A stretch of DNA of 64,000 nt from Eledone cirrhosa (taxonomy: Eukaryota). The notes beneath the pieces were generated by a model. It was not told where the DNA came from and made no database searches. It saw nothing but the letters and a program-made list of their open reading frames with translations. The stretch is taken from assembly GCA_964016885.1 (NCBI GenBank), contig OZ024746.1:8928001-8992000 (forward strand), in the 5' to 3' direction. Both the position numbers and the translations under genes were made by a program. Below are positions 7,570-8,016 of this stretch, piece by piece; positions within the stretch are counted from its first letter, which is position 1; each line of letters starts with the position of its first letter.

Positions 7570-8016
7570 ATGGAAAGTTATATTTAAATTGTTGGGTTAC
7601 AACTAGTAAATATTTATAACTGATATAACAGCACTCGACAAGTATTTGGAGTATATTTACGATATTAAATAAATGGAAACTATATTTATAAAACCATATT
7701 ATTTCATTATATATATTTCAGGGATATCATATTAACAATATGCTATGCCTTCCTCAGACAAAATACAATATAAACAGTTTTATAGATAAATAGATTTGAC
7801 ATACCGTACAACATCGACTTGTATTTGACTGCCAATTCAACTTTTCAAATACAAGTCGATGTTGTACGGTATGTCAAATCTATTTATCTATAAAACTGTT
7901 TATATTGTATTTTGTCTGAGGAAGGCATAGCATATTGTTAATATGATATCCCTGAAATATATATAATGAAATAAATATGGTTTTATAAATATAGTTTCCA
8001 TTTATTTAATATCGTA
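7570..8016. mobile_element. Family A fold-back element: ~170-bp near-perfect inverted repeat plus ~90-bp one-sided tail, inside (TA)n
   Basis: 7658-7828 is the reverse complement of 7845-8016 with a 16-nt spacer; each arm holds a hammerhead motif. Confidence 0.9.
7908..7973 (+). ncRNA. Type I hammerhead ribozyme (family A); mirror copy on the minus strand at ~7700-7766
   Basis: Helix I tattttgt/atgaaata; core CTGAGGA; helix II agg..catatt-gtt-aatatg..cct; GAAA; palindromic minimal helix III tatata; AUA cleavage triplet (cut predicted after 7965). Confidence 0.8.

Follow-up and report, generated by a model that had tools for sequence, protein, structure and literature searches.

Twin priming in the L1 retrotransposon was reportedly described by Ostertag and Kazazian in 2001; there, the position of the second priming varies, and the two cDNAs share no overlap. 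Under this mechanism, both 3' ends of the target prime on one RNA and the products are joined head to head (PMC2246262). Insertions of endonuclease-bearing (EN+) Penelope-like elements (PLEs) have been described as consisting of an inverted, 5'-truncated copy beside the 5' end, with a palindrome at the junction and a tail that is often found at one end, and their (TA)n targets hide the target-site duplications (PMC8557442; PMC3846280); the inverted 5' copy, the one-end tail and the (TA)n targeting are described also in PMC8969392. In these accounts endonuclease resolution is given as the cause of the tail, and antisense self-priming as that of the palindrome (PMC8557442; PMC3846280), and the formation of the tandem and inverted structures and of the tail is named an open problem (PMC8557442). 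A biochemical precedent is available for Poseidon of Anolis (PAc), the protein of which is predicted to be a dimer and, in vitro, cleaves AT-rich DNA, cuts and extends both strands, uses uncleaved hammerhead RNA as the template, and starts reverse transcription at two adjacent sites that bound the tail and are both internal to the RNA (PMC11167929). Finally, the non-LTR retrozymes are PLE-derived short units that carry type I hammerheads, in which the short helix III is palindromic (PMC4209133; bioRxiv 10.64898/2026.07.22.740005), and the hammerhead of the PLE pseudo-LTR is itself a minimal type I structure with such a helix III (PMC4209133).

The window, that is, the whole stretch of 64,000 nucleotides of Eledone cirrhosa DNA that was analysed, is AT-rich and dense in microsatellites, and includes a satellite block at ~31.7 to 46.3 kb in which a 28-bp minisatellite (31689-41365; 347 copies, arranged in higher-order units of ~2.9 kb that are 97-98% identical) is followed by (GTA)n, a 21-bp array (43426-45731) and (CTA)n. 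The ~49 kb of non-satellite DNA hold 24 two-armed, head-to-head inserts, which we classified by hand from a self-BLAST of the window with simple repeats masked (27 local inverted matches) and from family alignments. All counts pertain to this one hand-curated window, with related families (B/B-prime, G/G-prime, C/I) counted separately; family letters besides A-C are our own and may differ from those of the original prediction made for this DNA. The 24 do not include the single-arm or unresolved copies A2, A4, B3, C1, L2 and L3, the fragments 56367-56384 and 56480-56520, four pairs facing a tract, and three local inverted matches that are SINE or distant pairs. Most inserts comprise element ends only (68-682 bp; one of 1066 bp), and their tails are 34-112 nt long. 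The window also contains an ORF fragment at 385-696 on the plus strand (81% match at 30502-30597), which looks to us like a piece of a retroelement reverse transcriptase (RT), a GC-rich 116-bp pair (13442-13557 and 46941-47056, 90%), a local tandem duplication at 60930-61392, and a dispersed SINE-like family of ~200 bp, presumably resembling octopus SINEs, with copies 72-91% identical; ARAGORN called no tRNA in this family or elsewhere in the window. The SINE-like copies are as follows:

6484-6700, SINE-like copy
9392-9585, SINE-like copy
9697-9821, SINE-like copy
9847-10067, SINE-like copy
12908-13099, SINE-like copy
17571-17767, SINE-like copy
47346-47421, SINE-like copy
47620-47833, SINE-like copy
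58745-58904, SINE-like copy
62478-62686, SINE-like copy
62921-63072, SINE-like copy

The focal insert, A1 (7569-8014), is a palindrome with arms identical at 169/169 aligned columns (7660-7828 against 7845-8014) around a 16-nt centre. Its right arm ends at ATCG-TA (the hyphen in such motifs marks the stop) and its left arm is 91 nt longer, in agreement with the original prediction of a short arm opposed by one ~90 bp longer; the same stop recurs, also as predicted, at 17200 (A2) and 23562 (A3). According to the family alignment, the A1-type tail is present in A3, A4, A6 and, in part, A5. The limits of the arms of A2, A3 and A5 are approximate, automatic junction assignment being unreliable. 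Family A comprises:

7569-7659, minus strand, A1 tail of 91 nt, beyond the mirror match, running from the inner to the outer start site and adjoining the left (TA)n
7630-7652, minus strand, A1 bulged hairpin ACTC-CAA-loop-TTG-TC-GAGTGCT, beginning 7 nt past the inner stop
7660-7828, minus strand, mirror part of the A1 left arm, with a hammerhead core at 7757
7829-7844, A1 head-to-head junction, 16 nt unpaired
7845-8014, plus strand, A1 short arm, which stops at the inner site and shares a 2-nt TA overlap with the tract
7908-7973, plus strand, A1 minimal type I hammerhead by our own descriptor, with the cut predicted after 7965
17059-17200, plus strand, A2, solo short arm with a hammerhead, flanked by (TA)n tracts
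23562-23788, A3, short arm of 116 nt (minus) and a tail arm (plus) only ~19 nt past the inner site
27454-27665, plus strand, A4, tail arm with a hammerhead, joined on its left to an unrelated sequence, X
48051-48202, A5, short arm (minus) and partial tail (plus, from ~+18), the mirror part absent
57580-57980, A6, diverged mirror insert, the short arm ending at a different TA ~22-25 nt upstream

The 8 bases left of A2 (17051-17058) resemble an inverted A-tail end and may be a tail stub like that of insert L1 below, being too short to call; an inverted A-tail fragment lies between TA runs at 56480-56520. Sequence X belongs to a pair (26935-27042 and 27335-27442, 97% identical) that flanks a 290-bp TA tract, its right copy running into A4; the pair fits the hairpin descriptor given below minus RCT, and a 32-bp piece of it recurs at 26467-26498.

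The same anatomy extends to the other families, with the stops and tails that the original prediction had listed for B and C. Family B short arms end at TTCC-TA or at most 1 base away, with tails of 77-82 nt:

15886-16010, B1, short arm (minus) joined to the tail (plus) via 7 shared nt at the inner site
22747-22962, B2, mirror insert, its left end at a TAT in unique sequence
24560-24672, plus strand, B3, solo short arm, with a three-helix hammerhead junction by folding and a UUGAUAA core
29379-29568, B4, mirror insert with a right-side tail
49287-49477, B5, mirror insert with a left-side tail
55942-56133, B6, mirror insert with a right-side tail
56258-56345, B7, whole tail (minus), terminating precisely at the inner site, and a 10-nt short arm (plus), the TA shared
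24161-24343, B-prime, diverged relative of B with a left tail of 74 nt

The segment 56367-56384 is a probable slipped duplicate of the right end of B7. Family C stops at TCTT-TA and has a 65-nt tail; it is listed with its distant relative I, in which the tail arm is the longer one, and with family L:

14740-14934, plus strand, C1, solo tail arm
24759-25100, C2, an exception with two short arms, each stopping at the inner site and neither being the closest copy of the other
25123-25190, C2b, 68-bp insert at another TA within the C tail
29878-30234, C3, mirror insert (145/145 columns) with a 65-nt tail and a UUGAAAA-core hammerhead in each arm
25271-25952, I, 74-nt short arm, 494-nt spacer and 40-nt tail
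28265-29330, L1, 1039-nt arm (minus) ending at the inner site, 14-bp fold-back and 16-nt tail-end stub (plus)
28807-29304, minus strand, in the L1 long arm, C-terminal GIY-YIG endonuclease remnant of 166 aa, Neptune-like
58902-59302, plus strand, L2, solo family L arm with a complete 60-nt tail

The remaining inserts include H, which accounts for the asymmetry predicted at 48240:

5432-5910, J, one-tail insert, 38-nt tail and 290-nt spacer
12480-12664, D, one-tail mirror insert, 44-nt tail
14978-15274, E, one-tail mirror insert, 109-nt tail, hammerhead 3' half and tail hairpin
16763-16992, G, one-tail mirror insert, 66-nt tail, hammerhead 3' half and tail hairpin
29589-29819, G-prime, relative of G with the same anatomy
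48239-48445, H, one-tail mirror insert, 37-nt tail
59593-59904, K-prime, one-tail insert, ~70-nt tail, hammerhead 3' half and tail motif
63644-63874, K, an exception, asymmetric and tailless, the second arm ending far upstream

A 46-bp piece of the K-prime spacer (59749-59794) is repeated at 60458-60503, and a pair at 12407-12465 and 12768-12831 (78% identical; one copy with GAGTGCT at 12831-12837) points at the tract that holds D.

The identity of these inserts is indicated by the hammerheads in their arms. Our first scans demanded a CUGANGA core and yielded 5 hits, in family A, against 0.07 expected, missing B and C; with U3/A8 allowed, which recovered C, the full descriptor gave 8 hits against 0.17 expected, in families A and C plus one at 26124. 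The core of B and C is UUGANAA, U3/A8 replacing C3/G8 (24571-24577, 24995 and 30129 on the plus strand, 30048 on the minus strand), which we take to be a compensated pair. Hammerhead 3' halves are found in B, B-prime, E, G, G-prime, K and K-prime, and L has a core without helix I; in I there is only a GAAA match at chance level, descriptor scans detected no hammerhead in D, H or J, and no hammerhead was among the 150 of 341 Rfam matches listed. Altogether, whole or half type I hammerheads are predicted in six lineages. The architecture predicted for family A (in A1, an 8-bp helix I, the CUGAGGA core, helix II, GAAA and a palindromic helix III) is that of the PLE pseudo-LTR hammerhead of PMC4209133. 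When three hammerhead regions and as many tail hairpins were folded, their energies mostly fell within those of shuffles (z from +0.8 to -2.1; -1.2 for B3), so thermodynamics alone does not support the hammerheads or the tail hairpins. All of the hammerheads face outward, which makes every arm a PLE 3' end. Single-arm repeats next to microsatellites contain further cores that resemble hammerheads, or related ends, at 20444, 26124 and 23866-23981 on the minus strand and at 53676 on the plus strand, and these are probably further PLE families.

Further evidence comes from the ORF in the long arm of insert L1, which contains the linker CX4CxxC (C33-X4-C38-xx-C41) and CCHH residues (C60, C65, H103, H108) and is followed by a stop codon and a 3' region. 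This ORF has 2069 relatives at E<=0.001, with which the GIY-YIG motif residues align; Pfam gave zero hits for the two ORF fragments of the window (385-696 and the L1 ORF, 28807-29304) and, among nine relatives of the latter, one hit to GIY-YIG (8e-4) and one to RVT_1 (2e-4), both under the curated cut-off. In the long relatives, the match lies at or near the C-terminus, downstream of DKSG and YVDD, which we read as PLE RT motifs, and the L1 copy is truncated before the RT. DKG is given among the PLE RT motifs in PMC8557442, and by the criteria of the same source (a CX2-5CxxC linker and CCHH), the predicted L1 protein fits a Neptune-type C-terminal endonuclease. The source PLE is thus probably Neptune-like. 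We also considered the Naiad clade and rejected it: the endonuclease is C-terminal in family L and N-terminal in Naiad, and there are hammerheads in A, B and C, Naiad being devoid of a canonical one. The evidence from the GIY-YIG ORF applies to family L only; the other families carry no ORF, and family C and the ORF-less families are assigned to PLE ends by predicted hammerheads and structure alone. There is no full-length PLE copy within the window, and the search for a partial direct tandem that would form pseudo-LTRs around an ORF yielded only a 32-bp direct repeat at 26467/27006.

We conclude that the inserts are ends of EN+ PLEs, short insertions of a known shape, with the 5' truncation, inverted 5' copy and optional tail of this class. 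This bears out the original contention that they are retroelement ends rather than terminal inverted repeats (TIRs), on the strength of the hammerheads in the arms, the PLE endonuclease ORF in L1 and the one-sided tails. MITEs or fold-back DNA transposons with TIRs at TA would also appear as short TA-flanked palindromes with centres that cluster per family; this origin is extremely improbable because the ends are asymmetric (22/24), the tail may be on either side, length varies within families, solo arms and non-mirror copies occur, and the arms contain hammerheads and, in one of them, the PLE endonuclease ORF. The symmetric, fixed-length TIRs of such transposons are not what is seen here, and this class was rejected. 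The other radical alternative, a fold-back artefact of sequencing or assembly, might be suggested by the identity of the arms of A1, C3 and I over their aligned columns; its probability is negligible, and it was likewise rejected, given that other pairs diverge by up to ~14% (36/42 matches in B-prime, 126/137 in A6) and that the ends fall on the same family-specific bases at separate loci and in both orientations.

The feature that unites these families is the single tail, which is present on exactly one arm in 22 of the 24 inserts, on both arms in none, and on neither in two (C2 and K), such that the earlier claim of one rule over many families holds. In multi-copy families, whose further copies define the outer end, the ratio is 13/14. 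If each end chose its site independently, mixed ends would make up at most half of the inserts (<=0.5), and under this null the observed counts have P = 1.8e-5 (22/24) and 9.2e-4 (13/14). The one-tail rule also speaks against two independent insertions placed back to back within one TA tract. Several elements per tract are indeed found here, the C2 arms are non-sister (8/108 differences between them, against 3/145 to C3), and the A4/X join combines families; nevertheless, sister arms are mutually closest in 7 of 9 pairs, so that both arms derive from one source, and mirror inserts have no TA tract between their arms, which makes such double insertions very improbable.

Both end points are fixed. 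A perfect 8-nt (TA)n, in which any target-site duplication would be hidden, adjoins 43 of the 48 insert ends, the outer ends vary by up to ~6 nt, and among the copies in the window, none runs past the outer site. The inner site is preferred, not absolute, because A6, C2b and K stop at others. When each inner site is counted once, its stop overlaps the tract by at least 2 nt of TA at 10/15 sites (3.2 expected; P = 1.8e-4), the exceptions being B-prime, D, E, H and K-prime; such an overlap is found in 19/27 short arms overall, and at most inner stops it spans 2-7 nt. The original proposal that the (TA)n target supplies the primers is thus supported. Homology to TA alone does not choose the inner site, because longer TA runs upstream in the arms were passed over (9 nt at -57 in A, 10 nt at -62 in C, 19 nt at -206 in L). 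Furthermore, the solo copies A2, B3 and L3 end at the inner site and have no mirror arm, and therefore this site behaves as an independent start site. The two defined start sites of the original prediction are thus recovered as fixed inner and outer ends, with an in vitro precedent in Poseidon (PMC11167929). The outer one, which that prediction placed at the RNA terminus, need not coincide with the end of the RNA, since the Poseidon sites both lie inside it.

The fold-back point varies less than the original prediction had it: the outer ends are fixed, within the jitter of ~6 nt, and the fold-back points cluster within families, at -52 to -68 from the inner stop in B, at -145 in C3 and -138 in the solo copy C1, and at -170 and -166 in A1 and A6, respectively. 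The centre spans at most 24 nt in 16 of the 21 aligned inserts, and in B, E and G it lies 12-34 nt upstream of the hammerhead GAAA, that is, in the helix II region. Fold-back of B on its natural helix II was considered and rejected, the centres of B4-B6 being devoid of the ~30-nt native loop of B3. Five inserts have short-arm sequence with no counterpart in the tail arm, which ends at about -19 (A3), +18 (A5), -1 (B1), 0 (B7) and +44 (L1) from the inner site, with 7 nt shared across the join in B1 and 2 nt in B7.

The best explanation of this ensemble is that each insert results from one integration event, in which the 3' terminal part (pseudo-LTR region) of an EN+ PLE entered (TA)n. As to how the two arms arise, we lean, with moderate confidence, towards twin priming, whereby each nicked target end starts a cDNA at a different RNA site and the two are joined head to head. 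The GIY-YIG endonuclease would nick both target strands, whereupon the outer site would be primed by one target 3' end and the inner site, 37-109 nt upstream, by the other; a dimer would likely hold the single RNA on which both reverse transcriptions start. The choice of sites might be dictated by protein geometry, possibly with a contribution of a bulged hairpin between the sites, and fine-tuned by TA pairing. Both cDNAs would usually stall at a common barrier, often hammerhead helix II, and their joining by short homology or a short fold-back would produce a palindrome with the tail on one side; copying one RNA twice in this manner would require strand displacement. Twin priming is favoured by the single tail in 22/24 inserts and the complete lack of double tails, by the inner ends of A2, B3 and L3, by the excess of TA overlaps (10/15 sites against 3.2 expected), by the closeness of sister arms (7/9 pairs), by the tail arms of A3, A5, B1, B7 and L1, which end as if meeting a second primer, and by the skipping of longer TA runs, which an outward second strand caught by homology would meet first. 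It is also in line with the in vitro extension of both strands by the Poseidon protein from two sites that bound the tail (PMC11167929). However, C2 and K break the rule, 5/15 sites show no TA overlap, and the hairpin is found in only 4/10 lineages; moreover, the start sites reported in PMC11167929 are alike for both strands and have no homology to the cut DNA.

A different route could give rise to most of these structures: a single priming at the outer site, snap-back of the cDNA, outward copying, capture of the product at the inner site by the opposite TA end, and later deletion as the source of non-mirror inserts. Such a snap-back would explain more simply the centres of at most 24 nt in 16/21 inserts, and it is compatible with the near identity of sister arms, the 14-bp fold-back in L1 and the 2-7 nt junction homologies, which deletion could leave as well. 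Palindromes are prone to deletion; the five non-mirror junctions could be later deletions of this kind and therefore do not decide between the two routes. We nevertheless regard snap-back as unlikely: it gives no reason for a fixed stop that skips longer TA runs met earlier, leaves the solo short arms A2, B3 and L3 unaccounted for, and requires at least five separate deletions, mostly in the tail arm, and the inner site corresponds to a known class of RT start sites (PMC11167929). The claim of two cDNAs joined head to head thus survives as the most likely origin, one with which snap-back followed by deletions competes. The two routes can also be mixed, as the fold-back in L1 suggests. A third scenario, in which an antisense transcript primes itself and the palindrome forms before integration, is the published proposal for the inverted junction palindromes of rotifer PLEs (PMC3846280), and the small centres would fit it. 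For the present inserts we find it quite improbable because it leaves unexplained the two fixed outer ends with TA overlap and the one tail per insert, the hammerheads and the tail hairpin are outward on both arms, and, in vitro, trimming the 5' side of the template gave a shorter product, as expected of a sense template (PMC11167929).

A possible determinant of the two sites lies within the tail. The motif GAGYRCT is present in the tails of 7/13 families (none in C/I, D, H, J and L), 20-28 nt past the inner stop in six of these. The motif by itself is borderline: with families uncollapsed, 1/1000 shuffles matched the observation, but with related families collapsed and the search corrected for, 33/600 shuffles reached 5/10 lineages and 19/600 reached 4 in a 10-nt band. 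The structure around the motif has stronger support. The hairpin RCTC-NNN-loop-NNN-NN-GAGY, a descriptor composed after inspection of the data, is closed by 13/16 motif copies in sense tails and by 0/21 other motif matches. Its inner stem varies between lineages (CAA/TTG, TAC/GTA, TGT/ACA), and its outer stem changes from ACTC/GAGT to GCTC/GAGC. With the upstream 60 nt shuffled, the chance fit is 1.5-6% per lineage (bulge of 0-4 nt). The hairpin with a 3-bp inner stem occurs in 4/10 lineages (A, B, E and G/G-prime); neither B-prime nor K-prime fits it, and MAFFT alignment of 12 tails did not bring the 5' arms into register. We propose the bulged hairpin (RCUC...GAGYRCU) just 3' of the inner start in these four lineages as a candidate cis-element. 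A more far-reaching and tentative hypothesis, to which we attach a less than even chance, is that twin priming is the normal route of PLE integration, with a dimeric RT-endonuclease docking on the hairpin RCUC-NNN-loop-NNN-NN-GAGYRCU and priming both target ends at fixed registers, 3-14 nt upstream and 43-68 nt downstream of the motif. If true, this hypothesis would account jointly for the tail, the inverted pseudo-LTR and the one-tail rule, and would name an element that recruits the enzyme across unrelated families. The candidate hairpin could be mutated directly in the in vitro assay that is already established.

The wider interest of these inserts stems from the position of PLE reverse transcriptases as the sister group of telomerase. 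With 24 inserts in one window, the genome should hold a very large set, for which the competing models make different predictions. Such inserts are liable to be taken for MITEs or hairpin RNAs in annotation; the 150 of 341 Rfam matches listed (E<=5) were all sub-gathering, and nearly all of them were microRNA models on palindromes or microsatellites.

How, then, do the window inserts compare with the known systems? The inverted 5' copy, the one-end tail, the (TA)n targets and the two RT start sites that bound the tail are already published. In the full-text literature that we searched, which leaves most subscription and older PLE papers outside, we found no twin priming invoked for PLE inversions, no near-strict one-tail rule, no TA overlap at the inner start and no bulged hairpin 3' of it, and a prior statement may exist; in the relevant passages of PMC2246262 and PMC3649969, twin priming is not applied to PLEs. 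The non-LTR retrozyme class was rejected: retrozymes form direct tandem arrays, whereas the window copies are dispersed inverted pairs or solo arms. Unlike the L1 retrotransposon, the second site here is fixed near the 3' end, and the two cDNAs usually duplicate the same stretch. As expected of an uncleaved hammerhead template like that of PAc, the arms span the predicted cut sites, but the PAc start sites are non-homologous to the target and not strand-specific, and PAc belongs to a different clade (PMC11167929). The closest match is with the EN+ PLE insertions (PMC8557442; PMC3846280), which share the inverted copy, the junction palindrome, the one-end tail and the (TA)n target, and differ in having tails of 30-40 nt, compared to 34-112 nt here, where the inserts are mostly end-only and the single tail is near-strict. 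Thus, the window provides a sharper rule than that published for a known class of elements, together with a candidate cis-element.
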